A stretch of DNA of 64,000 nt from Bacteroidota bacterium (GCA_035505655.1 DATJQP010000085.1:6395-70394); one strand, 5' to 3'. Positions 21,299-41,117 are shown, counted from the stretch's first letter. Program-made: numbers and translations. The notes: generated by a model not told the origin, from the letters alone.

Positions 21299-22831
21299 AT
21301 GAGACGGATGTACATACTTGTCGGGATCATCCTGATCGCGGGATGGCTTGGCGTTCAGGCTCAGACGAGCAACGGGACGGGAGGTGGGAAGTGGAGTGCT
21401 TCTGCCACCTGGCAGGGAGGGAACGTGCCGACCGGGTCCGGGACCATCGTCATTCAGGCCGCCGACTCGGTCTACATCGATGTTCCCGTCACGATCACTG
21501 GGACCCTTCGATCGTTCAGCGGAAAGATTGGCGTCTATGATTCGACGAAGATCGTCTTCGGGAACGGAGGAATCTACGAGCACGACATCAACGGCGGAAT
21601 GCTGCCGAAAGCGGTGTGGAATGCCGGCTCGACATGTCTCATCGACAGTCTCGTAGGGAATGCACCGGCGAACGGGAACCAAAACTTCTACAACCTTACG
21701 TGGAATTGCCCCCGTCAAAGCGCCGGTCTCAACCTTGCCATGAATGGCAACACGATCGGCGGCACTGTGCGGGTGATACAATCAAACCTCCAGGCGTTCC
21801 GATTGACTGCGAGCGGGGTGTCGACGACGCGAAAGACGGTCTCAATCAACGGGGACGTCATCATCGATGACTCGACGGGTTTTTTCACCGCGACGGGGTC
21901 AAGCGGTGTCGACACGATCACCGTCAACCTCAAGGGGAGCCTCACCTCGTACGGAAAATTCCAGCTTGCGAACGGGAGCGGGGCATCGTGCACCTGGCGA
22001 GTGGGAGGAGACGTCAAGGCGCTGGGTGGAACCTTTACAACCCACTCCGACTCGACGAAACCCGATTCTCTTATCTTTGTGGGAACCACCAAGCAGTCGC
22101 TCGTGAAGGCGGGAACGGTCGGCTCAATGTCGAACATCTACTTCGCGGTTCAAAGCGGCTCGACGCTCGATCTTGACACCAATGAGCTCGGTGCCACCGC
22201 GACGATCAAGTTCAGTCTCCAGCCGGGAGCGACGCTCTTCACAGGCCATCCGAACGGCTTCGAAGGGAACCTCAACAATACCGGCACCATCCTCCTGAGT
22301 CCCGCCGCCAATTATGGTTTCGACGGAAAAGTCGCGCAAACAACCGGCTTCCTCATGCCGGGCACGGTGAACAACCTCACCATCAACAACGCGAGCGGCG
22401 TAACGCTGGCGCAGTCGACAACGATCAACGGAGTGCTGACGCTCACGGCGGGGTTGTTCGACAACACGATCCCATTCACGCTGGGGCCCGGTGGTTCCAT
22501 TGTCAATGGTGGAGGGACGCTCAAGATTCCCGTGACCCTCGTCCCGAAAGAATCGTCCGGTGTTCCGCGCAAGTTTTTTGTCGAGCAGAACTATCCCAAT
22601 CCGTTCAACCCGACGACGCTGATCTCCTATGGAATTCCGAAGGATGAATATGTTTCAGTGAAGGTCTTCAACATCCTCGGTCAGGAGGTGAGGACGATCG
22701 TGGCGGAGAAACAGAGCGCCGGCGTCTATTCGTTCTCGTTCGACGGCTCCGGGCTCAGCTCGGGCGTCTATCTTTACAGGATTCAGGCCGGCAGTTCGGT
22801 TGATATCAAACGAATGATGCTCCTCAAGTAG
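21299..22831 (+). CDS. Secreted beta-helix/adhesin-like repeat protein with a T9SS CTD. Member of the 'GxW...TW / NGNQNFYN(L/V)TW(N/D)C' paralog family.
   Basis: RBS GGAAGGAG 7 nt upstream of the ATG at 21299. N-module 'GKWSASATWQGGNVPTGSGTIVI...NGNQNFYNLTWNCP'. C-terminal CTD 'EQNYPNPFNPTTLISYGIP...VKVFNILGQEV...GVYLYRIQAGSSVDIKRMMLLK'. Confidence 0.7.
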   Translation: MRRMYILVGIILIAGWLGVQAQTSNGTGGGKWSASATWQGGNVPTGSGTIVIQAADSVYIDVPVTITGTLRSFSGKIGVYDSTKIVFGNGGIYEHDINGGMLPKAVWNAGSTCLIDSLVGNAPANGNQNFYNLTWNCPRQSAGLNLAMNGNTIGGTVRVIQSNLQAFRLTASGVSTTRKTVSINGDVIIDDSTGFFTATGSSGVDTITVNLKGSLTSYGKFQLANGSGASCTWRVGGDVKALGGTFTTHSDSTKPDSLIFVGTTKQSLVKAGTVGSMSNIYFAVQSGSTLDLDTNELGATATIKFSLQPGATLFTGHPNGFEGNLNNTGTILLSPAANYGFDGKVAQTTGFLMPGTVNNLTINNASGVTLAQSTTINGVLTLTAGLFDNTIPFTLGPGGSIVNGGGTLKIPVTLVPKESSGVPRKFFVEQNYPNPFNPTTLISYGIPKDEYVSVKVFNILGQEVRTIVAEKQSAGVYSFSFDGSGLSSGVYLYRIQAGSSVDIKRMMLLK

Positions 22832-22893
22832 TTTGCCGCACGAAGAACAGGCCGGGGACGCAGACCGACTGCGGCCCTGAAGGGAAGGATTTC

Positions 22894-24612
22894 ATGCGTA
22901 GAAGATCGATTTCGATGACACTCTGGTTCTTGCTCTCTGCCGCACTCCCGGCCTCGGTACCTGGTCAGCAGCTTGCTTTTCCGGGAGCCGAAGGAGGGGG
23001 GATGTACACGTGGGGTGGACGCGGCGGTAAGGTGATCGAGGTGACGAACCTCAACGACGACGGTCTGCAAGGAAGTCTCCGGTACGCGATCAATCAGACG
23101 GGGGCCAGAACCGTCATCTTCCGGGTTTCGGGGACGATCAATCTCGTCCAGCCGCTGAAGATCACCAAAGACTCGATTACCATCGCCGGCCAGACTGCGC
23201 CGGGGGACGGCATCTGTCTCCGGAATTTTACCTTCAACGTGAGCGCGAACCAGGTCATCATCAGGTTCATCCGGTCGAGGTTTGGCGACCAGGGAGCCGG
23301 CAAGCCGGTGGACGACGCAATGAACGGATACAGCAGTACGCCCCACGCAAAAAAGAACATCATCGTGGACCATTGCTCGGCGAGCTGGAGCCTCGACGAA
23401 TCGCTCTCATTCTACGGGTATGACAGTCTCACGATCCAATGGTGCCTCGTAAGCGAGAGCCTCTACAACAGCTACGACCCGAAAGGGACGCATGGCTATG
23501 GCGGCATCTGGGGAGGATTCAATTCCACATTTCACCATAACCTTCTCGCGCACCACTCGAGCAGAAATCCCCGATTCTCCGGCCCGACTCCGGCCGGATC
23601 CGGGACGACCTACTCGCAGAACCTCGACTTCCGGAACAACGTGATCTACAACTGGGGATTCAACAGCTCCTACGGCGGAGAAGAGAGCGAGATCAACATC
23701 GTCAACAACTACTACAAGTACGGGCCCGCGACAAAGTCGAGCGTGAAGAACAGGATCTTCAACCCGTACGGAGCCGGCGACTCGACCGGAACGTTCTATA
23801 TCTCCGGCAATTATATGGACGGCGATACGTCGGTGACGAACAACAACTGGAAAGGGGTTGTCCCCGAGTATTCAGGGTTCAGGATGAGCAGCGCGATTGC
23901 GTTGACTCCATTCCCGTTCCCGGATGTCACCACGGACACTCCGCAGGATGCGTATACGAAGGTGCTCGCCGGTGCGGGGGCCACGCTGCCGAGGCGCGAC
24001 ACCGTAGATAGCCGCATCCTCTACGAGGTGGCGCACCGCACGGCCACGTATAAAGGACACACCGACCTCTTCGAAAGGACATACGGACTCGATACGACGG
24101 TCCCCCACGGCATCATCGATTCTCAGAACGATGTCGGAGGATGGCCTGCGCTTGCGTCGGTGCCGGCTCCGGCGGATTCAGACCACGACGGGATGCCGGA
24201 TGCGTGGGAGATCGCCCACGGGCTGAATCCTTACGACCCGTCCGACCGGAACGTCGTCGATGCGAGCGGGTACACCAAACTCGAAGAGTATCTGAACGAG
24301 TTGGCCGGCACGCCGACTTCCGTCCCCCAAAGCCGGGCTTTGGCTCCGAGTTCCCTCGAGCTTTCGCAGAACTATCCCAATCCTTTCAATCCTTCGACGA
24401 CGATACGATTCCGACTCCCTGCGAGGCTCCATGCGATCCTCACGATTTCCGATATGGCCGGAAGAAGAGTCGCGGTACTGGACGAGGGAACGCGTGAAGC
24501 GGGAGAGTATTCCGTGGTCATCGACGCTTCGCATTGGGCGAGCGGCGTTTATCTTTGCGCCCTTCGTGCCGGATACCAGGTGCGGACGATCAAGCTTCTG
24601 CTCGTCAGATAA
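22894..24612 (+). CDS. Pectate lyase (PL1 family) with a TSP3-like Ca-binding motif and a T9SS CTD.
   Basis: 'AFPGAEGGGMYTWGGRGGKVIEVTNLNDDGLQGSLRYAI', 'NIIVDHCSASWSLDESLSF', 'WCLVSESLYN', 'HHNLLAHHSSRNPRFSG'. The motif 'DSDHDGMPDAWEIAHGLNPYDPSDRN' is present. C-terminal CTD 'SQNYPNPFNPSTTIRFRLP...GVYLCALRAGYQVRTIKLLLVR'. Confidence 0.85.
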   Translation: MRRRSISMTLWFLLSAALPASVPGQQLAFPGAEGGGMYTWGGRGGKVIEVTNLNDDGLQGSLRYAINQTGARTVIFRVSGTINLVQPLKITKDSITIAGQTAPGDGICLRNFTFNVSANQVIIRFIRSRFGDQGAGKPVDDAMNGYSSTPHAKKNIIVDHCSASWSLDESLSFYGYDSLTIQWCLVSESLYNSYDPKGTHGYGGIWGGFNSTFHHNLLAHHSSRNPRFSGPTPAGSGTTYSQNLDFRNNVIYNWGFNSSYGGEESEINIVNNYYKYGPATKSSVKNRIFNPYGAGDSTGTFYISGNYMDGDTSVTNNNWKGVVPEYSGFRMSSAIALTPFPFPDVTTDTPQDAYTKVLAGAGATLPRRDTVDSRILYEVAHRTATYKGHTDLFERTYGLDTTVPHGIIDSQNDVGGWPALASVPAPADSDHDGMPDAWEIAHGLNPYDPSDRNVVDASGYTKLEEYLNELAGTPTSVPQSRALAPSSLELSQNYPNPFNPSTTIRFRLPARLHAILTISDMAGRRVAVLDEGTREAGEYSVVIDASHWASGVYLCALRAGYQVRTIKLLLVR

Positions 24613-24618
24613 ATCTGC

Positions 24619-25833: not shown

Positions 25834-25854
25834 TATCCCGCGGAAGTCGGAGCG

Positions 25855-26952: not shown

Positions 26953-26954
26953 GA

Positions 26955-27875
26955 ATGCGAACGCGATCGCTGAAGAGCGGATTGATGAAGGTTGGAATGA
27001 CGTACCTTCGCCGGAGAGGCACCATCGGCCTGGTCGCTTTTCTTGCGTTCTTCGGCGCTGTGCTCCCCGATCGGGGAGTCGCACATGCGCCGATCGGGAA
27101 GGGAGCGGCAGGTGACGCCGACACCGGGGTGATCCAAACGAAGGTTGTCTTGCTCGACTACTATTTCAATAACGAGTGGAAAGCGGGCCCAGGCGGCCGT
27201 CCTGTGCGCTACCATTATGTCTGGGAAGACACTGCGAACTCGGGATACTCGGAGTTCGGAATTTCAATCAGGTCACTCGGGGCGGTGACCGATAGCTCGC
27301 CGGTCGCACCCACTGAGGAGAACCTTGCCGGGGCAAGCATCTATATTATTGTCGATCCCGACACACCCCTGGAATCGCCGCATCCGAACTACATCGACAG
27401 CGCATCGACGGAAGCGATCGTCAACTGGGTGGGGAGGGGAGGGATTCTCCTCCTCTTTGGGAACGACAAGGGGAACGCGGAGTTCAAACACCTCAACATG
27501 CTTGCCGAAAGATTCGGAATCCACTTCAATGAGGATAGCAGAAACCGTGTCGAAGGCAATCGCTTCGAGATGGGAGCATTCAGCAACCTTCCCTTCCACC
27601 CTCTTTTCGAGGGGGTGAAGAAGATCTACTTGAAGGAGATTTCGACGCTTAGACTTTCGTACCCGGCCTCCCCGGTACTGACCGACAGGGGAGATGTCAT
27701 CATGGCGTATTCGAAATACGGAAACGGAAGTGTCTTTGCGGTCGGGGATCCCTGGTTCTACAATGAGTACTTCGATAACAGAAAACTTCCCGAGGAGTTT
27801 GAGAATTTCAAAGCGGCGAAGAACCTCTTGCGATGGCTCTTGCCCCGGGCAACGAGTGTGGAGCGACACCAATGA
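26955..27875 (+). CDS. Hypothetical secreted protein. Possibly a ThuA/class-I glutamine-amidotransferase-like fold; the assignment is unconfirmed.
   Basis: Signal 'LVAFLAFFGAVLP'. The segment 'GASIYIIVDPDTPLESPHPNYIDSASTEAIVNWVGRGGILLLFGNDKGNAEF' resembles DUF4350/ThuA-like proteins seen in polysaccharide loci. The domain call is weak. Confidence 0.5.
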   Translation: MRTRSLKSGLMKVGMTYLRRRGTIGLVAFLAFFGAVLPDRGVAHAPIGKGAAGDADTGVIQTKVVLLDYYFNNEWKAGPGGRPVRYHYVWEDTANSGYSEFGISIRSLGAVTDSSPVAPTEENLAGASIYIIVDPDTPLESPHPNYIDSASTEAIVNWVGRGGILLLFGNDKGNAEFKHLNMLAERFGIHFNEDSRNRVEGNRFEMGAFSNLPFHPLFEGVKKIYLKEISTLRLSYPASPVLTDRGDVIMAYSKYGNGSVFAVGDPWFYNEYFDNRKLPEEFENFKAAKNLLRWLLPRATSVERHQ

Positions 27876-29623
27876 AAATGACGTTCATGGCCGTAGATCT
27901 GGGATTTAACTGCAGACCTGCGCACGCAGCCTGGTGTTGGCGAACGAGAAAAGGTCGGATGTGGACGGTCGTCTTTGCGCTCCTCGTTCTGATTGCAGCT
28001 AAATCACGCGGGGGGACCGACCCTTCGCTCCTGGCCTACACAAGTCATCTCCCCTTTGCCATGGGGGAGGTGGAGATTCCCAACATCCCTTCAAAGCAAA
28101 TCTCGATCGCTGAGTTCGGCGCAATAGGCGACGGAACTACGGACAATTCAAGCGCATTTTCAGCCGCAATCCGTCGGTGCGCTGAAAACGGCGGAGGCGT
28201 CGTCGAGGTCCCTCCGGGTCTCTGGATGACTGGTCCGATCAGGCTCGAGAGTAGGACGGAGCTCCGACTGGACAGCGGGGCGGTCGTTATTTTCAGCAGG
28301 CGCTTCGAAGATTATCCGATGTTCGCCCGTCCCAAAAGCGGTGTGAAGTGCATGCCGATGATTTATGGGAGCAGTCTCACCGATGTAGCGATCACCGGCA
28401 AGGGGATGTTTGATGGAAACGGTCAGTACTGGCGGCCGGTGAAAAAGGAAAAGACGACTGAGAAGCAATGGAAGCAGCTCCTCGCGTCGGGGGGCGCGGT
28501 TTCGCCGGACGGAAAGATCTGGTGGCCCTCGAAGGAAGCGATGAATGGACAGGAGTTCATCAAGGAGTTGAGGAAGACCGCGAAGAAGCCTTCGCCCGCG
28601 CTCTATGCGGGGGCGAGGGAATTCCTGAGACCCGTCATGCTTGCTCTCGACGATTGCCGGCGCGTTCTTCTTGACGGCCCGACCTTTGCCAATGCCCCGG
28701 GCTGGACCTTGGCGCCGACTCGCTGTGAAGAGGTCGTGATCAGGAATGTTACGGTGAACAATCCGTGGTGGGGGCAGAACACCGACGGTCTCGACATCAA
28801 TTCGTGCAGAGACCTCGTTCTCTATAATAGCGTGCTGAGTGACGGCGACGACGGTATCTGCATCAAGCCTGGGAAACCGGGCGATGGTCATCCCGGAGAG
28901 CCGGCCTGCGAGAATATTGTTGTCGCCAATTGCACCGTCTACAGCGCCCACGGAGGGTTTGTCATCGGTTCGGAGTCGTACGGAGGGGCAAGAAATATCT
29001 CGGTCCGGAACTGCACCTTTGTCGGGACCGATATCGGCCTTCGGTTCAAGTCGGCAAAAGATCGGGGTGGCGTCATCGAAAAGGTCTATGTTGACGGAAT
29101 CCGGATGAAGGACATCGCGAACGAAGCGATCCTTTTCGACATGTCTTATGATAACAGTCTTGAGACAGAGGCCGGGTCCGACCTTCTGCCACAATACAGG
29201 GATTTTCACATTGAAAACGTCGCCTGCGACGGAGCCTCGGATGCGCTTGTCATTCGCGGGCTTCCGGAAATGCCGGTGAAGGATATCCACCTCAAGAATC
29301 TCTCGATCACTGCGGCCCGGGCGTGCACAATAGAGGATGCGGAGCAGATCGAGGTTGTGGGAATGAGAGTGACGATGCAGTCGGGACCCGTCTGGTCGAT
29401 AACGAACTCAAACTCGATCACTCTGCGAGGAATTGTAGTTCCGTCCGACGCTGAGGTATACGCGAAGGTTTCCGGATCAAAAAGCGGGCAGATCGTTGTG
29501 GATCGCCGGGACTACCCGGCGGCAGGGCGGGGTATCGAGCTTCTCGACGGAGCCGCAGCCAGCTCGGTGGTCGTTGATTCAACAACGGCGACTGAGCCGG
29601 GGAGATCCGGAGGCGTCCGGTGA
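27872..29623 (+). CDS. Glycoside hydrolase family 28 (polygalacturonase / rhamnogalacturonan hydrolase-like).
   Basis: 'IAEFGAIGDGTTDNSSAFSAAI', 'GKGMFDGNGQYWRP', 'NTDGLDINSCRDLVLYNSVLSDGDDGICIKPG', 'AHGGFVIGSESYGGARNISV', 'RFKSAKDRGGVIE'. The start is either the ATG at 27872 (ATGA overlap) or 27959 (MWTVVFALLVLIAA). Confidence 0.85.
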   Translation: MKMTFMAVDLGFNCRPAHAAWCWRTRKGRMWTVVFALLVLIAAKSRGGTDPSLLAYTSHLPFAMGEVEIPNIPSKQISIAEFGAIGDGTTDNSSAFSAAIRRCAENGGGVVEVPPGLWMTGPIRLESRTELRLDSGAVVIFSRRFEDYPMFARPKSGVKCMPMIYGSSLTDVAITGKGMFDGNGQYWRPVKKEKTTEKQWKQLLASGGAVSPDGKIWWPSKEAMNGQEFIKELRKTAKKPSPALYAGAREFLRPVMLALDDCRRVLLDGPTFANAPGWTLAPTRCEEVVIRNVTVNNPWWGQNTDGLDINSCRDLVLYNSVLSDGDDGICIKPGKPGDGHPGEPACENIVVANCTVYSAHGGFVIGSESYGGARNISVRNCTFVGTDIGLRFKSAKDRGGVIEKVYVDGIRMKDIANEAILFDMSYDNSLETEAGSDLLPQYRDFHIENVACDGASDALVIRGLPEMPVKDIHLKNLSITAARACTIEDAEQIEVVGMRVTMQSGPVWSITNSNSITLRGIVVPSDAEVYAKVSGSKSGQIVVDRRDYPAAGRGIELLDGAAASSVVVDSTTATEPGRSGGVR

Positions 29624-30879
29624 AAAGATGGACGTTGGTTTCGCTCTCTTTGGTCTTTGGAATCTCGGCGCTCATTGCCGCCGGGCCCCTCGAACTGACA
29701 GTTGCTCAGGATGGAAGCGGCCAGTACCGGACGATCCAGGCAGCGCTCGATGCGATTCCGGCGGGGGGCCATGGAAGAGTGACTATTCTGATCAAGAACG
29801 GTTTATATCACGAGAAACTGCTGGTGACGAAAAGCAATGTGGCTCTCGTCGGAGAGAGCCGCGACAGCACGCGCATCGTCTTCGCCGAGTTGCGTGAAAT
29901 CTGGCGAAAGGCCCACAACAACAGCGACTGGGGTTCGGCCGTCATCAACATCGACTCTGCGGTCACAGATCTCACGATCGCCAATCTGACGGTCTACAAT
30001 AATTACGGTACACTCTACGGCTCTCACGAGCATCAATATGCGGTCTGGGGAACCGGCACACGTATTATCATCATCGATTGCAACATCCTCGGAGACGGTG
30101 GAGATACGCTCAGCCTGTGGAACAAGACCGACGGAATGTACTACCACTCGAACTGCTATTTTGAAGGATGGGTCGACTTCGTCTGCCCCAGGGGATGGTG
30201 CTACATCACGGACAGTCGTTTCTACGGTCATAATCTGAGCGCGAGCATCTGGCATGACGGCAGTTCGAGCAAAGACGAGAAGTTCGTCATGCGCTATTGC
30301 CGATTCGACGGAGTTCCGGGATTTCCTCTTGGCCGCCATCATCGGGATGCACAATTCTATTTGCTGGATTGTATCTTCTCGAGGGAGATGGCCGATCGTC
30401 CGATCTACGCACCGCTCAATTCGCCGAACCTCGTTCCATGGGCATGGGGCGTGCGACATTATTTCTACAATTGTCATCGTGAAGGGGGAGACTACGGCTG
30501 GTTTGCGGACAACCTCTCAAGTGCTGAAGGATCTCCCGCCCCCTCGAACGTAGACGCGGCCTGGACCTTTGGCGGACGATGGGATCCTGAAACAGCGATG
30601 CCACCCGTCCTCCCGACAGTCTCTTTGCCTCATCCGAGGGATGCTGCCTACGGTATTCGGGCCGGAGAGCTTACATTGCATTGGTTGCCGGCAAGAAAAG
30701 CGGTCGCGCATCTGATATACTTCGGGAAGGATGAAGAACCGGCGCTTATGAAGAGTCAGCCCGAAGCGGCGGTGCAGGTGAAGGGACTTGATGCGAAGAC
30801 GATATACTACTGGAGGGTTGACGAAATTGCAGGATCCGACACTCTCCGGGGACCGATTTGGCATTTCACGACAGAGTAG
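29620..30879 (+). CDS. Pectinesterase (carbohydrate esterase family 8).
   Basis: Signal MKRWTLVSLSLVFGISALIAA. 'LTVAQDGSGQYRTIQAALDAIPAG', 'QYAVW..GTRIIIIDCNILGDGGDTL', 'YFEGWVDFVCPRGW'. The start overlaps the upstream stop (GTGA). Confidence 0.85.
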   Translation: MKRWTLVSLSLVFGISALIAAGPLELTVAQDGSGQYRTIQAALDAIPAGGHGRVTILIKNGLYHEKLLVTKSNVALVGESRDSTRIVFAELREIWRKAHNNSDWGSAVINIDSAVTDLTIANLTVYNNYGTLYGSHEHQYAVWGTGTRIIIIDCNILGDGGDTLSLWNKTDGMYYHSNCYFEGWVDFVCPRGWCYITDSRFYGHNLSASIWHDGSSSKDEKFVMRYCRFDGVPGFPLGRHHRDAQFYLLDCIFSREMADRPIYAPLNSPNLVPWAWGVRHYFYNCHREGGDYGWFADNLSSAEGSPAPSNVDAAWTFGGRWDPETAMPPVLPTVSLPHPRDAAYGIRAGELTLHWLPARKAVAHLIYFGKDEEPALMKSQPEAAVQVKGLDAKTIYYWRVDEIAGSDTLRGPIWHFTTE

Positions 30880-33900: not shown

Positions 33901-34792
33901 AGTCAACAACCTGACACTGGCCGACACGCTTGGAGCGAGGCTTTCTTCCAACACCTCGGTGAAAGGAGTGCTGGCCCTTCTTGCCGGGAAGCTTTCGATA
34001 GGGTCGAAGCACCTCACGGCCGCCGGGATCACCGGGGTCGCGTCGTCACGGTATCTCGTCACCGATAGCGGGGGTACGGTGAGCCGGTTCGGGGTCGGTG
34101 CCGTTCAGACCCTCTTCCCGGTGGGGACCCCCTCCGCGTACTCGCCGCTTTGGATTACGAACGCGGGGACCGTTGACACATTTTCAGTCGGGGTGGCGCC
34201 GGATAGCGGCGGGACGAGGAAGGGGAATGGTCGTGTGAAACTCAAGTGGGCTGTCACTGAGCAGACTCCGGGAGGAAGTCTGGCGACGCTTCAGTTTGGA
34301 TGGTTGGCTGGACAGGAAGACTCCGCCTTTGCGGCGAGCCGCAATACGAACGACCTCATCGTCCATCTCCCCGACACGGCGCAGGTGGGAACAGGAGCCT
34401 ACACGACTCAGTTCAGCACACAGCCGTATACGCTCTCGCGCGGAGGGATCACCGCATTCGGAACTTTCACCGTCGGGAAGCTCGGCGCACTGACGGGAGT
34501 TGATAACGAGCGCTCGGATCTACCCAAAGTGTACAGCCTCAGTCAAAACTATCCCAATCCTTTCAACCCGACAACGCGGATCGCCTACGACCTTCCGAAA
34601 GATGGTCAGGTGACTCTCATTGTTTACAACGTGCTCGGACAGCAAGTGGTGACTTTGGTGGACAGGGTTCAGGAAGCTGGGAGCTACACCGTGACATTTT
34701 CCTCCGAACATGGGATCGCCTCCGGGGTCTATTTCTACGTTCTCCGGGCAGGCGATTTCGTTTCCGTCAAGAAGATGATGCTTATCAAATAG
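30965..34792 (+). CDS. Giant secreted beta-helix/adhesin-like protein (1275 aa) with an internal tandem duplication of a ~600-aa module and a T9SS CTD.
   Basis: SD GGAGG upstream. Signal MRTKFYTAISLTLMMLLFGVQFLSAQA. Module 1 begins 'AGDYMSAGSGNWGDATTWQTYNGTQW'. Module 2 begins 'GDGDYRSHQSGPWSNVNTWERNNGTTW'. Each module ends with 'GVG(S/A)(T/V)Q(K/T)(I/L)FP(I/V)G...Y(A/S)P(V/L)WITN(S/A)G(S/T)VDT...GRVKLKW...QFGW(V/L)A'. C-terminal CTD 'SQNYPNPFNPTTRIAYDLP...LIVYNVLGQQV...GVYFYVLRAGDFVSVKKMMLIK'. Confidence 0.7.
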   Translation: MRTKFYTAISLTLMMLLFGVQFLSAQAAGDYMSAGSGNWGDATTWQTYNGTQWVPASTPPPDTSGTVTIHAGNTVTIAAGNPDTIKGAAIVVNGYLKDQAYLNFVSGTMTVNNGATYEMAHPSNSGQGIPTATWNTGSTCLLTGLTGSTTGINAGQAFYNLTINCPSMTSNLNLGWNSGTQNIGGNVTVQGTGASSRLYFCAPTAGGSDTVNIAGNLIVDGSATTSSSQIAFSSNGSGNGGTTIIINIGGNVTVTGNAANNAYTNFSVSRGSQGGSGTTLWNLYGNFTMTNATTQNSNTGGIARFVFSKAGRQALSFSGVNFAGGCPIEVKNGSTLSMGTSVLGSSGIFMVDSGATLECGLFAGLDSALSNSGTKTLSSQASYTFNATSAQVTGSLLPTTVNNLTIDNPAGVTIGKADTVTGTLTLTNGVLKIGSKTIIANSAAGGAATSYVATDSGGTLRINGVGSTQKIFPIGITGAYAPVWITNSGSVDTMTAFVVSDTMGGTKNQGGRVKLKWTIAENTPGGSNAILQFGWVAPSEDPIFSVNRAGNAKIFNLSDTAQAGSGSYTSQLFNAPFTISRGGISSFGTFAVGNFTGFVAGDGDYRSHQSGPWSNVNTWERNNGTTWIYPAPSAPTTTDSTIAIQTGHIVEVTDSAAVDQVTVNAGATLKIDSAKTLVLADGTGTDLTVLGTFVNGGNITVNTGASIVVASGGVYEHALNGGTLPTVSWSAGSVCRITGITNATSFNGGTKQNFSNFEWNSPAQTANTVFGFSGDTLSGYLKIVSTNTGQLSMFGDLNGSAVINGDLILQGGMFSVQGTSSATVDTVYHNGNISVTGGTLAVSRGSQAGSGKTVWYLSSGNMSVVNATAMNGTTTTHGGAAKFVFAKAGIQSLTLSGVTYGTGGLPIEVSPGTTLAMGTNRIGGAGTFALLPGATLESANVYGLDSSIAPTVARSFSNGANYTFDALTPQVTGATLPDTVNNLTLADTLGARLSSNTSVKGVLALLAGKLSIGSKHLTAAGITGVASSRYLVTDSGGTVSRFGVGAVQTLFPVGTPSAYSPLWITNAGTVDTFSVGVAPDSGGTRKGNGRVKLKWAVTEQTPGGSLATLQFGWLAGQEDSAFAASRNTNDLIVHLPDTAQVGTGAYTTQFSTQPYTLSRGGITAFGTFTVGKLGALTGVDNERSDLPKVYSLSQNYPNPFNPTTRIAYDLPKDGQVTLIVYNVLGQQVVTLVDRVQEAGSYTVTFSSEHGIASGVYFYVLRAGDFVSVKKMMLIK

Positions 34793-34797
34793 GGCAC

Positions 34798-34840: not shown

Positions 34841-34860
34841 TACCGGTAAAGTAAACGGTT
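34840..34860 (+). promoter_or_regulatory. Conserved motif copy B: TTACCGGTAAAGTAAACGGTT (perfect 10-bp palindrome TTACCGGTAA), ~90 bp upstream of the ATG at 34950.
   Basis: Identical to copy C and 19/21 to copy A. Confidence 0.4.
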
Positions 34861-34949
34861 AGAACAAAACTACGGCAGATTTTGGCAAGACCAATAAACA
34901 ACAATTCTCCAGGCATGCGCCATGGAGCAAACTCATCCTTGGAGGTACT

Positions 34950-37088
34950 ATGAAGACAATATTGCGCTCGCTCGCTTGCGCGCTCTCTTTGGTGGGGATT
35001 CAAATCTTTGCGCAAAACACGGGGGACTACCAGACGGCTCAATCCGGCAACTGGAACGATGTGACCACGTGGCAAGAATACAACGGTGGTTGGGGAGTCG
35101 CCGCGACGGTCCCCGATTCCAGCTCCGGCAAGGTAAGCATTCTCAGCGGCCACACCGTGACGATCACGGCAGACGCGGTGGTCGACTCGGTCTTCGTCCT
35201 CTCCGGCGGCTCGCTCATCGTGAACTCCGGCGTGACGGTCACGGTCGGCCCGCCGTACCTCCCGGCTCAGGCGGGAATCGTCGTGAGCGGATCGATGACG
35301 GTCAACGGAACGTATAAGCACGCCAGGGACGGCGGAGCGATCCCGACTGCGACATGGGGGACCGGATCGACTCTCCTCATCACGGGCACAGTCGGCACGG
35401 CTCCTTCGAACGGGAACCAGAACTTTTACAACGTCACGTGGGATTGCACCGGGCAGACGACGTCTGTGAACCTCGGGTGGAGCGGAATCACGATCGGCGG
35501 CAATCTCATCTGCAACAATACCGGTACATCTCAATTTCGATTCACAAACAACAATGCCAACAGCGGAAGCCCTGTCACCATCGGGATCAACGGAGATGTG
35601 ACGGTGAACAACGCTGCCATCGTCTCGCCGACTTCTTCCGGAGCGGCGCTGGTGTACACGATCAACCAGAACGGGAATATTGTTGTCAACGGAACGGCCC
35701 AGCTCTACGTTTGCGGCACGAGCAACACCGGTGCGTACGTCACCTGGAACGTGAAAGGCAACTTCACCGCCTCGTCGACGGCACAGGTAAGATCTTCGAA
35801 TTCAATCTCCCGTTGGACATTTAACTCGGGCGCGACGCAGTCGGTCAATGTCGGGGCAAGCGCTGTTGTGGTGGCCAACGTCATCATGGAAGTGGCTGCG
35901 GGTACGAACGTTCAGCTTAGTGCGCCGCTCACCGTCAACAGGCTCGTCCTCACGAGCGGCAAGATCACCTCGACATCGACGAACAAACTGACTGTCGGGG
36001 CAGTCAACTCGATCACAGGTGGAAGCTCGACAGCCTTTGTCGAAGGGCCTATGACTCACCAGTATAACGTCGCGGCTGCACAGTCATTCTTCTTCCCGAT
36101 CGCGAAGGGGGGGATCTACCGGCCCGTCACCCTTTCGCTGACCCAAAGTGCCACGACAACCTCGAACTACACGGCGGAGATGTTCAACAGCGCACCGGCG
36201 GCGAATAACCTTCCAGGTACCCTCTCCGGAGTGTCGACGGCTCGCTCCTTCACCATTGCGGAAGCTGGAGGTGGTTCGGCCTTTACCGCGGGGACGGTCA
36301 CGCTCAATTATGACAGCGACGACGGCGTTACTGACAACGGCAATCTTCGGGTCGCGAAGAACGATGGATCCGGCAACTGGGTGGACCTCGGCGGAACCGG
36401 ATCCGCGGCAACGACGGGGAGCATTACCTCCGCGACGGCGTTCACCGATCTCACGAGCGGCACGACCTTCACACTCGCGAACAACGTCGGGGGGACCAAT
36501 CCTCTGCCTGTTGAGCTGACGAGCTTCGCAGGGAGTGCTGACCGGCTCAACGCGACTCTCACGTGGACGACAGCGACAGAGGTCAACAACCGAGGCTTTG
36601 ATATCGAGCGAAAGCCCTCCGTTGCAGCTTCACAGACGCCGGCTTCGTGGACTAAGGTCGGGAGCGTGGATGGATCCGGAACAAGCAATGTGGCTCACGG
36701 CTATTCCTTCACGGACCGCAACCTGACGGCCGGGATCTATTCGTACCGCCTGAAGCAGATTGACAGAGACGGCGGCGTCAGGTACTCCGAAAGCATTGAG
36801 GTCGAGGTAGGGATGGTTGCGAAAGCGCTTAGTCTCTCCGGCAACTATCCGAACCCGTTCAATCCTACGACGACTATCGAGTTCTCGATCGCCAAGGACG
36901 GGAGGGCTGCGGTGAAGGTCTATAACACCCTCGGTCAGGAAGTCGCGCAGCTCTTCAACGAAACCGCGCAGGCTGGGAGGCTTTATCAGGTCACCTTCAA
37001 CGGGGATCGTCTCCCGTCGGGCGTCTACTTCAGCGTTCTCGAAGCAGGCGGCCAGAAACTGGTGAAGAAAATGCTCATGGTGAAGTAA
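34950..37088 (+). CDS. Secreted beta-helix/adhesin-like family protein with a 'LPVELTSF...NNRGFDIER' domain and a T9SS CTD.
   Basis: SD GGAGG. Signal MKTILRSLACALSLVGIQIFAQ. N-module 'TGDYQTAQSGNWNDVTTWQEYNGGW...NGNQNFYNVTWDCTGQ'. 'PLPVELTSFAGSADRLNATLTWTTATEVNNRGFDIERK'. CTD 'SGNYPNPFNPTTTIEFSIAKDGRAAVKVYNTLGQEV...GVYFSVLEAGGQKLVKKMLMVK'. Confidence 0.7.
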   Translation: MKTILRSLACALSLVGIQIFAQNTGDYQTAQSGNWNDVTTWQEYNGGWGVAATVPDSSSGKVSILSGHTVTITADAVVDSVFVLSGGSLIVNSGVTVTVGPPYLPAQAGIVVSGSMTVNGTYKHARDGGAIPTATWGTGSTLLITGTVGTAPSNGNQNFYNVTWDCTGQTTSVNLGWSGITIGGNLICNNTGTSQFRFTNNNANSGSPVTIGINGDVTVNNAAIVSPTSSGAALVYTINQNGNIVVNGTAQLYVCGTSNTGAYVTWNVKGNFTASSTAQVRSSNSISRWTFNSGATQSVNVGASAVVVANVIMEVAAGTNVQLSAPLTVNRLVLTSGKITSTSTNKLTVGAVNSITGGSSTAFVEGPMTHQYNVAAAQSFFFPIAKGGIYRPVTLSLTQSATTTSNYTAEMFNSAPAANNLPGTLSGVSTARSFTIAEAGGGSAFTAGTVTLNYDSDDGVTDNGNLRVAKNDGSGNWVDLGGTGSAATTGSITSATAFTDLTSGTTFTLANNVGGTNPLPVELTSFAGSADRLNATLTWTTATEVNNRGFDIERKPSVAASQTPASWTKVGSVDGSGTSNVAHGYSFTDRNLTAGIYSYRLKQIDRDGGVRYSESIEVEVGMVAKALSLSGNYPNPFNPTTTIEFSIAKDGRAAVKVYNTLGQEVAQLFNETAQAGRLYQVTFNGDRLPSGVYFSVLEAGGQKLVKKMLMVK

Positions 37089-37099
37089 CCGGGCTCACT

Positions 37100-37140
37100 C
37101 CTCTCCCTTCTTCCTGCAAGGAGGGAGAGGGTTCGGTCTT
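37100..37140 (+). terminator. Terminator-like hairpin: CCTCTCCC-loop-GGGAGAGG followed by a T-rich segment.
   Basis: Stem 37100-37107 / 37123-37130. Downstream is 'gttcggtcttt' and a T7 run at ~37193. Confidence 0.4.
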
Positions 37141-37213
37141 TCATCGACAGATGTTTGCGGCCGGTCCGGAGGGGAATGTGGCTATCAGTGCGGTTTTTTT
37201 GTTGCATTGAAAG

Positions 37214-37234
37214 TTACCGGTAAAGTAAACGGTT
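37214..37234 (+). promoter_or_regulatory. Conserved motif copy C: TTACCGGTAAAGTAAACGGTT, ~95 bp upstream of the ATG at 37329.
   Basis: Perfect palindrome TTACCGGTAA plus AGTAAACGGTT; identical to copy B. Confidence 0.4.
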
Positions 37235-37328
37235 GCGGGCTAATGCTTGGACGGAGAAAAGGGGACGGATTCCTCCGCATGAATAGCAATCGGTCAACGA
37301 CATGATCTTCTACGAAGCGAGGTTCAGT

Positions 37329-40300
37329 ATGAAAAACTCATTCTGCTTATGCCTGGCGGTATTTCTCGGATTGTCAACCGCGATGATTGCTCAGAACACA
37401 GGTGATTTTCGCAGTTATCAGAGCGGAAATTGGAGCGCCGCTAGTACCTGGAACTATTATGACGGCGCCAACTGGGTTAACCCCGCGCCCAATTTTCCTA
37501 CCTCCTCCGACGGCGCTGTTGAAATCCTCTCCGGGCATACGATCAACCTCGACACTTCCATCTCTGTGGACCAGACGACGATCGATGCCGGCGGCAGCGT
37601 CATCGTCGGAGTCAACAAGACATTGACTGTCGCGGATGGGGCGGACAGCGTTGATCTTGTCGTCAACGGCACATTCAATAATTTCGGGACACTTACCGTC
37701 GCCGGGAGGATGAGTTTCGAAAACGGCGGGCTGTATATCCACAGCACTCCGGCGGGCGCCGGGTCACTCCCCACGATCACCTGGCGGATTGGCGCCACCT
37801 GCCGCATCGACAGCTCCTCCGGATCGAATCCATCAAACATCAATCTTCAGAGTTTTGCCAACTTCATATGGAATGCGACAAACCAAGGGGCGAATGGAGG
37901 TCCGAATTTTTCGGACGGCGCGATTATAGCAGGCGATCTGACCGTGATGAGCTCCAAGGGGCTCCAATTCCGGTTGACGAACCTGAACGGCGGCCAGACT
38001 AAAAATGTCTACATCCGCGGCAGCGTTTATGTCAACGGGTCGACCGCGGTTCTCACTTCGACGGGGAGCGGCGCGGACACTGCCGCAAAAGCGGTGATCA
38101 ACGTTGACGGCAATGTCGCGGTCACTGCCGGACAATTGAGCCTCAACAACAGCGGCAGCGCCTACGCCGAATGGAAGATCAAGGGGAACCTGAGCGTCAC
38201 GGGGGGCACACTCCAGAGCGGCGCGAGCGGTTGGTACGGACGACGTGCTCTAAATTTCTGTGGTGGAGGCACCCAGACCCTGACGGTGAATTCCCCCGGC
38301 ACGATCGGTTCGGCGACGACTCTTTTCAAAGTCACCAAAGGCACGACGCTGCAATTGATGTCACCCCTCACTCTCATGAACAGCGGTGCCCTGAGCCTCC
38401 AGGATTCCGGGACTGTAGTCACCACATCGACAAATCTTCTGACCATCCCGGCGTCAGCCGCCATTCTTGGCGGATCGGCTTCGAGCTACGTCAACGGACC
38501 TCTTGCAGAAGTTGTTGCCGCATTGACGGCAACAAAGACATTCCCCGTCGGAAAGGGGGTCTTGTACCGGCCCCTCACGTTCTCACTCAATCATGACGCA
38601 GCGACCGCCACGACCTATACCGCGGAGGTATTCAATACCGCTCCTGCCTCCCGGACTCTTCCCTCCACGCTGAACAGCGTCTCGTCGGTCCGCTACTATC
38701 ATGTGACCAAAGGGAGCGGGGCCAATCTCTCCGGGACTCTCGGTGGAACCGTTCAGATTTCCTACGGGACCGATGACCTTGTGTCGGATTCCTCCGTCGT
38801 GAGGGTTGCCGAGGATTCAGCGGCAAATAATTGGATCAATCTGGGGGGAAGCGGGACGGCGAGCGGCGTCGGAACGATAACATCGAATGCATTCTTCTCA
38901 CTCTCCTCCGATGATTTCGTTCTGGCGACGGCGAATACCGGGGCATCGGCATCGCTGGCGATCCTGACGACTACCGCCGTCACAAGGATCTCCACGACGA
39001 GCGCACGATCCGGAGGGAATGTCACGAACGACGGCGGGGGAGCGATCACCGAAAGGGGAGTCTGCTGGAACACCGGAGGCGCCCCTACCATCGCCGATAC
39101 AAAACTGGCATCCGGCGCGGGGACCGGAATGTACACGAGTTCGCTCACGGGCCTGACGCCCGGAGTGGCATACCATCTTCGGGCCTACGCGACAAATCCG
39201 GCGGGAACAGCATACGGGAATGAAGTAACCTTTTCGACGTTCGCGTCAATCGTACCGCCGACGGTGACGACGACTTCCATCTCGAATATCCAGGTTACCA
39301 CGGCGATCAGCGGAGGAGCGGTGACTGATTGGGGCGGCGACACCGTTATCGCGCGTGGAGTTTGCTGGAATACGTCCGGAGCGGCGACGGTCAGCGGAAG
39401 TCACTCGGTCGACGGAAGTGATACCGGCTCGTACGCCAGCGGTCTTGCGCCCTTGTCCGGGAATACCACGTACTATGTCAGGGCATACGCGACAAACAGC
39501 TCGGGGACAGGCTACGGCAATGAGCTCTCGTTCACGACGCAGACCCCACAGCCCGATTCGACAGTGGTCGTCGCCGCGGACGGAAGCGGCAACTTCACGA
39601 CCGTCCAGGCGGCGTTTCGAGCCGTTCCCACCAACTACACGGGAAACTGGAGGATCTTCGTGAAGAAGGGGACATACTATGAAAAGGATACGCTCGCGAG
39701 CGGCAAGATCAACGTTACGCTCGAGGGTGAGGATCGCGACAGCACCATCATCACGTACGACGACTACGGGGACAAATACGGTGGGAACGGATCGGGAAAC
39801 CCGGGCACGAGCGGTTCATTTACGATCGCCATTGATGCGAGCGATTTCACCGCGAAGAATATCACCTTCCGGAACACCTATGCTCCCCAGGCCGGGGTAA
39901 GCGGGACTCAGGCGGTGGCGCTGAGAGCCCAGGGAGACCGGCACCAATACATCAACTGCAAACTCCTCGGGTATCAGGATACATACTACACCTGGGGCGG
40001 CAGCGGAACCGGACGTCTCTACCACAAGAATTGCTTCATTGAAGGGAGCGTCGATTTTATCTTCGGACGGGACATTGCCGTTTTTGACAGTTGCACGATC
40101 CATGAGATCCGTAACGGGGGAACGATCACGGCCGCGAGCACGGACGCAACCTCAAAGTACGGGTATGTTTTCCGGAACTGCACGATTGAAGCGGACTCTC
40201 TCGGCTACGATGGCGTTGTGAATTCCGCCTTCTATTTTGGCCGGCCGTGGCAGGCGAGTCCGCGAACGGTCTTTCTCAACTGCTACGTCCCGTCAAACCT

Positions 40301-41117
40301 GAGTCCTGCCGGGTGGGAATCCTGGAACGTGAGCCCGGCGCTCTACGGCGAGTACCACAGCTACGGTCCCGGATCATCGACGGCGGGGCGGGTCGCATGG
40401 TCGTCTCAGCTCTCCGGCTCTGATGCCGGCAACTACACTCTCGCAAACATTTTCTCCAAGAACTCGGCCGCATCAAGCCTGATTCTCTACGACTGGATGC
40501 CGTCTGCCGGGACCTCTTCGGACGCCCTGCCGCTCCCCATCGAGCTGATCTCATTCAGCGGAACATCGAGTAACCTGGACGCTTCGTTGCAATGGAAGAC
40601 CGCCACTGAAACCCAAAACCTCGGTTTCGAAGTTGACCGCAGCCCCGCGAACGGAAAAGAGGTTGGCTCGGGCGATTGGACGAAGCTCGGCTTTGTCCAG
40701 GGAAGCGGGACGAGTTCGGTTCCCCGCGAATACGGATATGTCGACAAGAATGTCCCGGCCGGAAACTACATGTACAGGTTGAAACAAATCAACAGGGACG
40801 GAACGTTCAGCTACTCCGCTTCCGTCGAAGTTGCCGTCGGCTCGGCTCCGAAGGCCTTCACGCTGAGCTCGAACTATCCGAACCCGTTCAATCCGGCGAC
40901 GACGATCGAGTTCACGCTTCGGGAAGACGGACGCGCCGCCTTGAAGGTCTACAACATTGTCGGACAGCTCGTGGCTGTACTCTTTGACGGTGAGGCTGAA
41001 GCCGGGAGGATCTACACAACGACGTTTGACGCTTCCCGGCTCGCTTCGGGGATTTACTTCAGCGTGCTCCAGGCGGGGAATCAGCGCCTTGTGCGGAAGA
41101 TGTCGCTCTTGAAATGA
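37329..41117 (+). CDS. Multidomain pectin methylesterase. It comprises the N-terminal beta-helix/adhesin-like module, two Ig/FN3-like 'CWNT...RAYATN' repeats, a CE8 pectinesterase catalytic domain, the 'LPIELISF...NLGFEVDRS' domain, and a T9SS CTD.
   Basis: Signal MKNSFCLCLAVFLGLSTAMIAQ. N-module 'TGDFRSYQSGNWSAASTWNYYDGANW'. Two repeats 'ERGVCWNTGGAPTIAD...LTGLTPGVAYHLRAYATNPAGTAYGNEVTF' and 'ARGVCWNTSGAATVSGS...YYVRAYATNSSGTGYGNELSF'. CE8 motifs 'VVAADGSGNFTTVQAAF', 'QAVALRAQGDR', 'LLGYQDTYY', 'GSVDFIFG', 'FGRPWQ'. CTD 'SSNYPNPFNPATTIEFTLREDGRAALKVYNIVGQLV...GIYFSVLQAGNQRLVRKMSLLK'. Confidence 0.8.
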   Translation: MKNSFCLCLAVFLGLSTAMIAQNTGDFRSYQSGNWSAASTWNYYDGANWVNPAPNFPTSSDGAVEILSGHTINLDTSISVDQTTIDAGGSVIVGVNKTLTVADGADSVDLVVNGTFNNFGTLTVAGRMSFENGGLYIHSTPAGAGSLPTITWRIGATCRIDSSSGSNPSNINLQSFANFIWNATNQGANGGPNFSDGAIIAGDLTVMSSKGLQFRLTNLNGGQTKNVYIRGSVYVNGSTAVLTSTGSGADTAAKAVINVDGNVAVTAGQLSLNNSGSAYAEWKIKGNLSVTGGTLQSGASGWYGRRALNFCGGGTQTLTVNSPGTIGSATTLFKVTKGTTLQLMSPLTLMNSGALSLQDSGTVVTTSTNLLTIPASAAILGGSASSYVNGPLAEVVAALTATKTFPVGKGVLYRPLTFSLNHDAATATTYTAEVFNTAPASRTLPSTLNSVSSVRYYHVTKGSGANLSGTLGGTVQISYGTDDLVSDSSVVRVAEDSAANNWINLGGSGTASGVGTITSNAFFSLSSDDFVLATANTGASASLAILTTTAVTRISTTSARSGGNVTNDGGGAITERGVCWNTGGAPTIADTKLASGAGTGMYTSSLTGLTPGVAYHLRAYATNPAGTAYGNEVTFSTFASIVPPTVTTTSISNIQVTTAISGGAVTDWGGDTVIARGVCWNTSGAATVSGSHSVDGSDTGSYASGLAPLSGNTTYYVRAYATNSSGTGYGNELSFTTQTPQPDSTVVVAADGSGNFTTVQAAFRAVPTNYTGNWRIFVKKGTYYEKDTLASGKINVTLEGEDRDSTIITYDDYGDKYGGNGSGNPGTSGSFTIAIDASDFTAKNITFRNTYAPQAGVSGTQAVALRAQGDRHQYINCKLLGYQDTYYTWGGSGTGRLYHKNCFIEGSVDFIFGRDIAVFDSCTIHEIRNGGTITAASTDATSKYGYVFRNCTIEADSLGYDGVVNSAFYFGRPWQASPRTVFLNCYVPSNLSPAGWESWNVSPALYGEYHSYGPGSSTAGRVAWSSQLSGSDAGNYTLANIFSKNSAASSLILYDWMPSAGTSSDALPLPIELISFSGTSSNLDASLQWKTATETQNLGFEVDRSPANGKEVGSGDWTKLGFVQGSGTSSVPREYGYVDKNVPAGNYMYRLKQINRDGTFSYSASVEVAVGSAPKAFTLSSNYPNPFNPATTIEFTLREDGRAALKVYNIVGQLVAVLFDGEAEAGRIYTTTFDASRLASGIYFSVLQAGNQRLVRKMSLLK

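Follow-up and report, generated by a model that had tools for sequence, protein, structure and literature searches.

Beta-helix proteins with T9SS signals in a Bacteroidota pectin locus as candidate pectin-binding surface modules

Why would a pectin locus maintain four related secreted proteins beside its enzymes, and what might these proteins do? We addressed this question in a 64,000-nucleotide stretch of DNA from a Bacteroidota bacterium (GCA_035505655.1, DATJQP010000085.1:6395-70394), hereafter the window, with positions counted from its first letter. An original prediction, drawn from the DNA letters alone, had described the four as an expanded paralog family and as a scaffold that recruits pectinolytic domains. 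This interpretation is partly supported: an enzyme domain, CE8, is found in only one of the four proteins, g37329.

Four paralogous genes and their export

The four plus-strand reading frames (g21299, g30965, g34950 and g37329) are all present where they had been predicted (Table 1), and their paralogy is borne out by all-against-all BLASTP, with E-values from 1e-20 to 1e-71. In the ENA annotation of this contig, g30965, g34950 and g37329 encode 1275, 712 and 1262 aa, respectively; the length of 1263 aa first reported for the last is thus corrected to 1262 aa. Each protein begins with a Sec signal peptide, read from the sequence as a hydrophobic N-terminus ending at a cleavage site between A and Q. 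The signals are of SPI type and have no lipobox Cys. At the other end, a T9SS CTD had been predicted for every member, and a Por_Secre_tail/TIGR04183 match was indeed found at the C-terminus of all four. All passed the TIGR04183 cut-off (36-45 bits vs 23) and three passed that of the Pfam CTD model (PF18962), below which g30965 falls (25.4 vs 27). Because the CTD is C-terminal, the anchor would be at that end and the helix would form the tip farthest from the cell. As for the T9SS machinery, a PorV/PorQ-family gene alone was seen within the window. Four further T9SS cargo genes in the window, at 5836, 22894, 41134 and 45964, are without the beta-helix module.

The longest member, g30965, had been described as holding two full copies of a unit of about 600 aa. 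A self-comparison, which the original prediction had proposed as a check, recovered a significant internal repeat: the copies align over about 570 aa at 42% identity (E 2e-120), and the second begins at GDGDYRSHQSGPW, in agreement with the earlier reading. No DNA-level likeness was found between the copies, which rules out both a recent duplication and an assembly artefact. Orthologous two-unit proteins occur in two other loci (L041 and L049). The protein is an old tandem duplication.

Table 1. Positions and parts of the beta-helix family genes, the receptor cassette and the neighbouring CE8-like gene in the window
Feature	Position	Strand	Parts and evidence
TonB-dependent receptor-like outer-membrane protein (cassette gene 1)	13492..16464	+	SusC/RagA-type N-terminus; synteny
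PorZ-CTD protein, ~738 aa (cassette gene 2)	16481..18697 (start approximate)	+	NF052228, E 2e-6; PDB 5m11, CTD only, E 1.7e-4
PorV/PorQ family outer-membrane barrel (cassette gene 3)	18648..19742	+	Nearer PorQ than PorV; NF033709, 208 bits vs cut-off 90
Second outer-membrane barrel (cassette gene 4)	19739..21223	+	Weakly PorV-family/BamG/FadL-like; directly upstream of g21299
g21299, 510 aa	21299..22831	+	Signal peptide (cleavage between A and Q); beta-helix unit aa 23-415 (21365-22543); T9SS type A CTD aa 432-506 (22592-22816)
Divergent CE8-like gene without CTD	29620..30879	+	Directly upstream of g30965; pair conserved in other genomes
g30965, 1275 aa	30965..34792	+	Copy 1 aa 29-595 (31049-32749); copy 2 aa 603-1173 (32771-34483); each helix + sandwich; CTD aa 1196-1272 (34550-34780)
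g34950, 712 aa	34950..37088	+	Signal peptide; beta-helix aa 22-342 (35013-35975); beta-sandwich aa 343-516 (35976-36497); FN3-like aa 517-632 (36498-36845); CTD aa 633-709 (36846-37076)
g37329, 1262 aa	37329..41117	+	Beta-helix aa 22-364 (37392-38420); sandwich aa 365-540 (38421-38948); two FN3-like GVCWNT repeats aa 541-745 (38949-39563)
g37329, C-terminal half		+	CE8 pectin methylesterase aa 746-1041 (39564-40451); FN3-like linker (40452-40874); CTD aa 1183-1258 (40875-41102)

Extent and fold of the shared unit

A shared N-terminal module of about 170 aa had been assigned to the four proteins. The shared homology is real, but the module is not a discrete domain. By BLASTP, the homology among the paralogs spans 300-560 aa, and the stretch first noticed makes up the N-terminal and best-conserved half of a right-handed beta-helix that spans 320-400 aa and that AlphaFold models with a pLDDT of 91. 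This model and the CTD matches agree with the beta-helix, adhesin-like fold of T9SS cargo that had been proposed. The motifs NGNQNFYNxTW(N/D)C and P(T/K)A(T/V)W..., given as conserved, are exact in g21299 and g34950 only and degenerate in g30965 and g37329. The helix is rich in glycine, serine, threonine and asparagine and starts with a tryptophan-rich cap, GDYxSxxSGNW..TW..G..W. It is followed by a beta-sandwich of 135-175 aa in three of the four proteins, g21299 being the one from which it is absent.

The suspicion that the module is unlike described CBM and adhesin families was supported by the sequence searches. Pfam models, searched to E 10 with the whole proteins and with isolated helix, sandwich and linker pieces, returned the CTD, CE8 and weak fn3/Ig matches only; NCBIfam, searched to E 0.1 with the whole proteins, returned nothing matching helix or sandwich; and a profile of the unit had no match among PDB sequences at E up to 1, with chance-level matches only for the sandwich alone. 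When the full model was compared with PDB by Foldseek, the matches were to FN3/Ig tandem arrays and PorU through its C-terminal sandwiches, a result that bears on the sandwiches and not on the helix.

Pectin locus, fused enzymes and receptor cassette

The window is a pectin locus that encodes two GH28, GH88, two CE8, PL9, a PelZ-like lyase, UxaC, UxaE, KduI, an SDR and LacI. The CE8 catalytic domain of g37329 is complete, as had been claimed: the PF01095 match covers model positions 2-294 of 298 (E 4e-63), and none of the five CE8 motifs is missing (GTYYE, QAVAL, QDT, DFIFG and GRPW, the last four within aa 781-974). The two predicted Ig/FN3-like GVCWNT...RAYATN repeats are also there; they have a weak fn3 match, together with a match to the repeats at the N-terminus of the BT0360 model. 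Fusions recur elsewhere: in 8 other genomes the beta-helix unit is joined to CE8, in 2 genomes the rear part of the unit (the sandwich and at most the last helix rungs) is joined to PL9, and in 1 genome the sandwich alone is joined to GH28. Together with the confident helix model, these three kinds of fusion show a fold that is appended to CAZymes, as in a CBM. Some family members are fused to GH43 and discoidin domains, and GH43 stands in the precomputed domain list of one member (P0013). In 8 loci, a CE8-like gene is the immediate upstream neighbour of a beta-helix family gene.

Each of the four paralogs has orthologs in other genomes, at 57-76% identity, and the link to pectin is conserved. 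Of the 79 related genome loci, 35 encode pectin enzymes and the other 44 have no pectin enzyme homolog; the pectin fraction is inflated because the genomes were scanned with a peptide pattern from the window, which favoured close and syntenic relatives. Among the loci reached through protein matches, five of six had pectin enzymes. Pectin specificity does not extend to the beta-helix family at large, which comprises about 6,800 clusters at 50% identity, spread over Bacteroidota, Ignavibacteria, KSB1 and a few Verrucomicrobia, and one member adjoins a GH29 fucosidase and a SusC/D locus.

The smallest of the four, g21299, is the fifth gene of a cassette in the order TonB-type receptor, PorZ-CTD protein, PorQ/PorV-type barrel, second barrel and beta-helix protein, and its orthologs occupy the same place elsewhere. 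This order recurs in 15 of the 79 genome loci, and the cassette was also found in Ignavibacteria and KSB1 loci reached independently with the PorZ-CTD protein as query. This latter protein is highly conserved across lineages; its body has many invariant charged residues and no match to PorZ, and its last ~110 aa resemble the uncleaved PorZ CTD. An identity with PorZ was ruled out, as the PorZ match is confined to those last residues. Thus g21299 stands beside a SusC-like receptor without SusD, and no SusD gene was found in the window or in the related pectin and cassette loci examined. A literature search on T9SS with pectin, on Ignavibacteria and on PorV-like proteins with polysaccharide utilisation found no description of the beta-helix family or of the cassette.

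Two known arrangements are close to this one. In P. gingivalis, the barrels of the PorZ-PorQ and PorU-PorV pairs in the T9SS attachment complex hold uncleaved-CTD proteins on the surface (PMC10947112, PMC10202324). The cassette is similar in that the gene for a protein with a PorZ-like CTD comes immediately before one for a PorQ/PorV-family barrel, after which a second, related barrel is encoded. However, the body of its PorZ-CTD protein is unlike PorZ, the genes lie in a catabolic locus and not with the secretion machinery, and the CTD of g21299 is of the ordinary type A. SGBP (SusE/F-like) and SusD proteins, too, are non-catalytic surface proteins beside a TonB-dependent transporter and cognate enzymes, often as multiple copies or with binding domains in tandem. 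They are lipoproteins, whereas the present four have an SPI-type signal and a T9SS CTD in loci without SusD. We rejected the possibility that the four are Bacteroides-type SGBP or SusD proteins, there being no lipobox Cys and no SusD-family match in the window or related pectin loci.

Candidate roles of the helix

Based on the fold, the fusions and the genomic context, we lean towards the view that the four proteins are non-enzymatic surface modules for pectin binding or targeting, one of which holds a fused CE8. The main rival to this view is that they are generic surface adhesins or coat proteins without glycan specificity. The helix would then serve for adhesion or as a spacer, much as in autotransporter passengers or SprB-type proteins, and the pectin locus would only co-regulate attachment to plants. 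The low-charge composition rich in G, S, T and N is what such proteins would show, and so are the giant multi-unit family members (up to 7,481 aa), the many loci without a CAZyme link and the location of the Adhaeribacter members among other T9SS cargo genes. However, four distinct orthogroups are kept in a clade that sits in the pectin loci of Ignavibacteria, other Bacteroidota and KSB1, and the recurrent CE8 fusion and the constant adjacency of CE8 and of a TonB-type receptor point to substrate handling more than to general adhesion. A stalk that projects the enzyme was also ruled out for g37329, in which CE8 lies between the C-terminal anchor and the helix. We regard generic adhesion as rather unlikely for these four. 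Autotransporter passengers (Pet, UpaB, VacA p55 and Vag8) differ from the four proteins, which have no translocator barrel or PATR repeats and have predicted T9SS export and a C-terminal CTD anchor. An autotransporter or PATR beta-helix was rejected, since no such Pfam match was found and the C-terminus is a T9SS CTD.

The sandwich could instead be the true binding module, with the helix as its rigid extension. A beta-sandwich is the usual CBM fold, and the PL9 and GH28 enzymes mentioned above carry the sandwich with at most the last helix rungs. Against this, g21299 and all cassette orthologs have no sandwich, and every instance of it comes after a beta-helix, which suits the role of a cap or connector. 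We find this explanation improbable.

Very improbable, in spite of the place of the genes within pectin operons, is a new catalytic pectin family (lyase, hydrolase or esterase) built on the fold shared with PL1, PL3, PL9, GH28 and CE8: no D, E, K or R is conserved family-wide or at 80% in the pectin clade (H124 reaches just 64%), which argues against catalysis, the pectinase and Beta_helix models of Pfam do not match the helix even at E 10, and PL1-like, PL9, GH28 and CE8 enzymes are already encoded in the locus. Conservation in the helix falls on G, W, P, S, T, Q, N, F, Y, C and the aliphatic I/V/L. Membership of PL1, PL3, PL9 or GH28 was likewise rejected, with no match to the helix in Pfam (to E 10) or NCBIfam (to E 0.1) and no conserved charged residue.

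For the preferred reading, surface pectin binding, there are precedents, as non-catalytic beta-helix binders are already known in CBM89, the tapirins and SRRP. CBM89 of CapGH10 (PDB 7jvi) is an established beta-helix CBM that binds xylan and is attached to GH10 (PMC8810776). It resembles the present helix in its right-handed beta-helix fold, its length of several hundred residues and its lack of catalysis, and also in being attached to a CAZyme encoded in a glycan locus of Bacteroidota. It differs in having only 6% identity and no sequence-level match to the present helix; in addition, the partner enzymes here act on pectin, and the majority of members stand alone as T9SS surface proteins. An assignment of the four helices to CBM89 was rejected, as sequence homology to 7jvi is absent. 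The tapirins of Caldicellulosiruptor (PDB 6n2c, 6n2b and 4wa0) are also stand-alone, non-catalytic beta-helix surface proteins encoded beside polysaccharide-degradation genes, and they bind the polymer being degraded. However, they belong to Gram-positive type IV pilus loci, have cellulose as ligand and bear no sequence likeness. The binding region of SRRP from Lactobacillus reuteri (PDB 5nxk) is a beta-solenoid adhesin with polygalacturonic acid and RG-I as ligands (PMC5866549). It shares a pectate-lyase-like fold without catalysis, but it is a Gram-positive host adhesin exported by aSec, and the basic residues of its binding site, which act at acid pH, are largely missing from the present helices.

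We suggest that the four proteins would be exported by Sec and then cross the outer membrane through T9SS by means of the type A CTD, and that the beta-helix, as a putative binding or targeting module, would capture pectic polysaccharide at the cell surface. The likeliest target would be methyl-esterified homogalacturonan, because this is the substrate of the constant partner CE8. Known polygalacturonate binders use basic residues, and the helix is poor in charge (6-10% K+R+D+E, pI 5.6-7.6); de-esterified pectin is therefore an unlikely ligand. The ligand could also be something entirely other than pectin. In g37329, the helix would keep the fused methylesterase on its substrate in the manner of a CBM, while g30965 would offer two putative binding units and g34950 one. 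We assume that g21299 would capture glycan for the TonB-type transporter encoded next to it, and that it and the PorZ-CTD protein would be held there by the PorQ/PorV-type barrels of the locus. Oligogalacturonides would then be imported and catabolised by the GH28, GH88, UxaC, UxaE, KduI and KduD of the locus, with a LacI-type regulator above them.

A wider proposal, which we make tentatively, is that the beta-helix unit is a new pectin-directed binding family and that, in addition, the five-gene cassette is a new glycan-uptake complex in which T9SS cargo is held by dedicated PorQ/PorV-like barrels instead of SusD/SGBP lipoproteins. The cassette would then be the Ignavibacteria/KSB1 counterpart of the Bacteroides SusCD utilisome; that both parts are true is possible but doubtful.

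The fold and general role of the four proteins are not surprising, and the support is computational throughout. The family is unnamed and has no characterised member among its thousands of sequence clusters. Should members of the pectin clade prove to bind pectin, they would constitute a new CBM family for the major plant polysaccharide that is covered least, and methyl-esterified homogalacturonan would gain a useful probe. The cassette of g21299 suggests how T9SS lineages without SusD may arrange glycan capture at a TonB-dependent transporter, and if this reading is true, the role of PorQ/PorV-like barrels would be widened from the secretion machinery to nutrient uptake.

The pectin locus and its four secreted paralogs

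By its gene content, the window (G+C of about 57%, with nearly all of the long ORFs on the + strand) is a pectin/galacturonate locus, in which no SusD-like gene is present. The PelZ-like gene probably encodes a divergent PL1-like lyase; its product matched the NCBIfam pectate lyase PelZ at E 5e-36, under the equivalog cut-off, and Pfam gave its T9SS type A C-terminal domain (CTD) alone. The DUF4350 gene is possibly a pectin acetylesterase accessory; several related loci encode a fusion of DUF4350 with a GDSL lipase/esterase domain. The subtilase and the ASH protein are unrelated to the beta-helix family.

Coordinates of the features in the window
Feature	Position	Strand	Length (aa)	Remarks
S8 subtilase	5836-9690		1284	T9SS cargo
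GH28	start 11855
Cassette gene 1	13492-16464			TonB-type receptor, SusC/RagA-type N-terminus; whole cassette 13492-22831
Cassette gene 2	16481-18697		738	putative start; longer ORF 16265-18697 overlaps upstream gene
Cassette gene 3	18648-19742			PorV/PorQ family barrel; NF033709, 208 bits vs cut-off 90
Cassette gene 4	19739-21223			second barrel, weakly PorV-family or BamG-like
g21299 (cassette gene 5)	21299-22831	+	510	helix-only T9SS protein
PelZ-like lyase with CTD	22894-24612		572	T9SS cargo
GH88	start 24619
LacI-type regulator	start 25855
DUF4350 protein	26955-27875			between LacI and GH28
GH28	start 27833
Divergent CE8-like gene	29620-30879			no CTD; upstream of g30965
g30965	30965-34792	+	1275
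g34950	34950-37088	+	712
FN3-like LPVEL..F domain	36498-36845			in g34950
g37329	37329-41117	+	1262
FN3-like LPVEL..F domain	40452-40874			in g37329
PL9-like lyase with CTD	start 41134
TonB-dependent receptor	start 42795
ASH / choice-of-anchor D Ig-like protein	45964-47985		673	T9SS cargo; between TonB receptor and DUF4861
DUF4861	start 47999
UxaC	start 49430
KduI	start 51004
MFS transporter	start 51890
SDR (short-chain dehydrogenase)	start 53223
Sugar kinase	start 56522
UxaE	start 57698
Sugar kinase	start 58911
SDR	start 61629

The four ORFs named in the original prediction, with starts at signal-peptide methionines, are real paralogs, with E values of 1e-20 to 1e-71 in all-against-all BLASTP, and the gene calls of g30965, g34950 and g37329 are identical in the ENA assembly of the same contig (Bacteroidota MAG). 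All four carry a Sec signal and, as predicted, end with a T9SS sorting domain, here of type A; by sequence they qualify as T9SS type A cargo. Their signal peptides end in VQA, LSA, IFA and MIA (in gene order), each followed by Q, in agreement with the rule of an N-terminal glutamine in substrates of Bacteroidetes signal peptidase I (PMC5837995). The quoted N-terminal motifs are exact in two of the proteins and degenerate in the other two. The paralogs had been described as an expanded family. Each of them has separate orthologs, at 57-76% identity, and the set is thus old and conserved and no local expansion.

When genomes were scanned, one for each species, 79 loci were found to encode a family relative, in which close relatives are over-sampled because the scan pattern was derived from the window; homologs of the window's pectin enzymes lie within about 10 kb in 35 of these loci (at least one) or 32 (at least two). 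Of the six loci reached via protein hits, five are likewise pectin loci and share these gene families, the exception being Adhaeribacter soli.

Architecture and history of the repeated unit

A shared N-terminal module of about 170 aa had been proposed. Homology among the paralogs reaches far past 170 aa, and in the AlphaFold model of g34950 (81-sequence alignment, mean pLDDT 91) short regular strands begin at residue 27 and run to about 340, followed by a beta-sandwich (343-516), an FN3-like domain (517-632) and the CTD. By both, the proposed module corresponds to the N-terminal, conserved half of a predicted beta-helix of 320-400 aa, distal to the C-terminal anchor. Helix and sandwich form a unit that occurs twice in g30965, and g21299 has the helix without the sandwich. 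The C-terminal 195 aa of g34950 and g37329, made up of the FN3-like LPVEL..F domain and the CTD, are 56% identical, compared to 37% for their helices, which suggests recent exchange or a stronger constraint on the anchor-proximal part.

The tandem duplication predicted in g30965 is borne out by alignment of aa 29-595 with aa 603-1173 (42% identity, E 2e-120). In the two-unit orthologs of two related loci, L041 and L049, unit 1 is 70-72% identical to copy a and unit 2 is 65-69% identical to copy b, whereas identity to the non-matching copies is only 42-44%; no DNA-level similarity was found between the g30965 copies. By these comparisons, the duplication is older than the species splits from L041 and L049. 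KSB1 loci have a three-unit version.

The predicted fusion in g37329 likewise held, in that the protein has a complete, ordinary CE8 domain (PF01095, E 4e-63), in which all catalytic motifs are present, together with the two expected GVCWNT repeats, which are FN3-like. Fusions of a complete unit to CE8 occur in 8 other genomes; the rear part of the unit (last rungs and sandwich, with weak helix matches ahead of them) comes after PL9 in 2 genomes, and the sandwich by itself follows GH28 in 1. In the CE8-like protein encoded at 29620, the match to PF01095 is confined to the first half of the model, and GGDTL, VDFVC and LGRHH stand in place of the consensus QDT, DFIFG and GRPW; the second Gln is lost, and both Asp residues and the Arg may still be there. 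In 8 other loci, too, a family gene is immediately preceded by a CE8-like gene.

The beta-helix as a candidate pectin binder

Helix and sandwich had no match in Pfam up to E 10 or, with whole proteins as queries, in NCBIfam up to E 0.1, and a five-unit profile found nothing among PDB sequences up to E 1. As judged by these searches, they belong to no known family; the CTD is the sole precomputed Pfam domain in nearly all of the best 120 homologs. When 1.84 billion cluster representatives were searched with the family profile, 6,768 matched at E <=1e-3 and 1,328 at E <=1e-30; some of these proteins have as many as 17 matched stretches, and lengths reach 7,481 aa. Members of named origin come from Bacteroidota, Ignavibacteria, Kryptonia, KSB1, Cloacimonadota, Calditrichota and a few Verrucomicrobia. 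Beyond the pectin clade, some members are fused to GH43 and discoidin domains and some have no CAZyme neighbours. Both unit number and glycan context vary: a 2066-aa two-unit member in Desertivirga arenae, a cultured member of the Sphingobacteriia (locus L060, 9893-16093), adjoins a GH29 fucosidase, FecR and SusC/SusD, and a KSB1 pectin locus (L088, 16534-20187) encodes a three-unit member.

Residues conserved family-wide are G33, N34, W35, T40, W41, W48, P55, P132, T135, W136, S140, T141, Q157, F159, N161, G184, T191, Q297 and further glycines. When 83 helix sequences were compared in two groups, those from pectin loci and the rest, the pectin-locus group had no Asp, Glu, Lys or Arg conserved at 80% or more, and H124 reached only 64%. 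Charged residues make up 6-10% of the helix and G+S+T+N 45-50%, a composition that fits an adhesin-type helix. On these grounds, the catalytic machinery of PL1, PL3, PL9, GH28 and CE8 enzymes is ruled out in the helix as far as sequence can tell.

We favour, at slightly better than an even chance, the explanation that the four proteins are exposed on the outer membrane, where the helix would bind pectic polysaccharide. Methyl-esterified homogalacturonan would be a likelier ligand than polygalacturonate, because CE8 is the partner and basic residues are almost absent. The helix of g37329 would then serve as a CBM-like targeting module, g30965 would be bivalent and g21299 would feed the adjacent transporter. 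Nonspecific adhesin or coat proteins would fit the fold, composition and breadth of the family; however, four conserved orthogroups, CE8 fusions and a receptor cassette would be left unexplained, and we regard this possibility as rather unlikely. That the sandwich is the true binder agrees with the PL9 and GH28 fusions but is improbable, given that g21299-type proteins have no sandwich and that its fold is unlike that of a CBM. A new enzyme family is contradicted by the lack of conserved charged residues and is very improbable.

CBM89 (PMC8810776), tapirins and SRRP (PMC5866549) are precedents for a glycan-binding beta-helix without catalysis. In their mode of action the family proteins would be closest to CBM89, tapirins or SGBPs, yet they stand outside those families, because the helix has no sequence relationship to CBM89 and the proteins here have neither a lipoprotein signal nor SusD in their loci. 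The pectin-locus clade of this unnamed beta-helix family, known here by predicted structure, behaves like a binding module.

The five-gene receptor cassette

In every case the helix-only g21299 comes last in a block of five genes. The gene order is repeated in 15 of the 79 loci, and the cassette was found in every locus examined from the 738-aa query, KSB1 and Ignavibacteria among them; in these loci pectin genes are always near, the cassette always closes with a helix-only family member, and SusD was never seen beside it. The barrel at 18648 is nearer to PorQ than to PorV. The 738-aa protein matches the PorZ CTD in NCBIfam NF052228 (positions 653-756, E 2e-6) and PDB 5m11 (residues 661-757, E 1.7e-4), and the rest of it had no Pfam, NCBIfam or PDB match. 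Because it shares 52-82% identity across Ignavibacteria, other Bacteroidota and KSB1, with dozens of invariant charged residues (Asp, Glu, Arg, Lys), it resembles either an enzyme or a highly specific binder.

In P. gingivalis, PorZ retains its CTD and the PorQ barrel holds it on the surface, and it has been proposed in review that cognate PorV-like barrels shield such CTDs from cleavage (PMC10947112, PMC10202324). With this precedent, gene order and domain matches suggest that the cassette consists of a receptor and its surface partners, which T9SS would deliver and dedicated barrels would hold. We found no description of the family or the cassette in open-access papers. The fold and general role of the family are what a specialist would expect; the cassette, a possible T9SS-based equivalent of SusCD/SGBP complexes, is the most original aspect of the finding.
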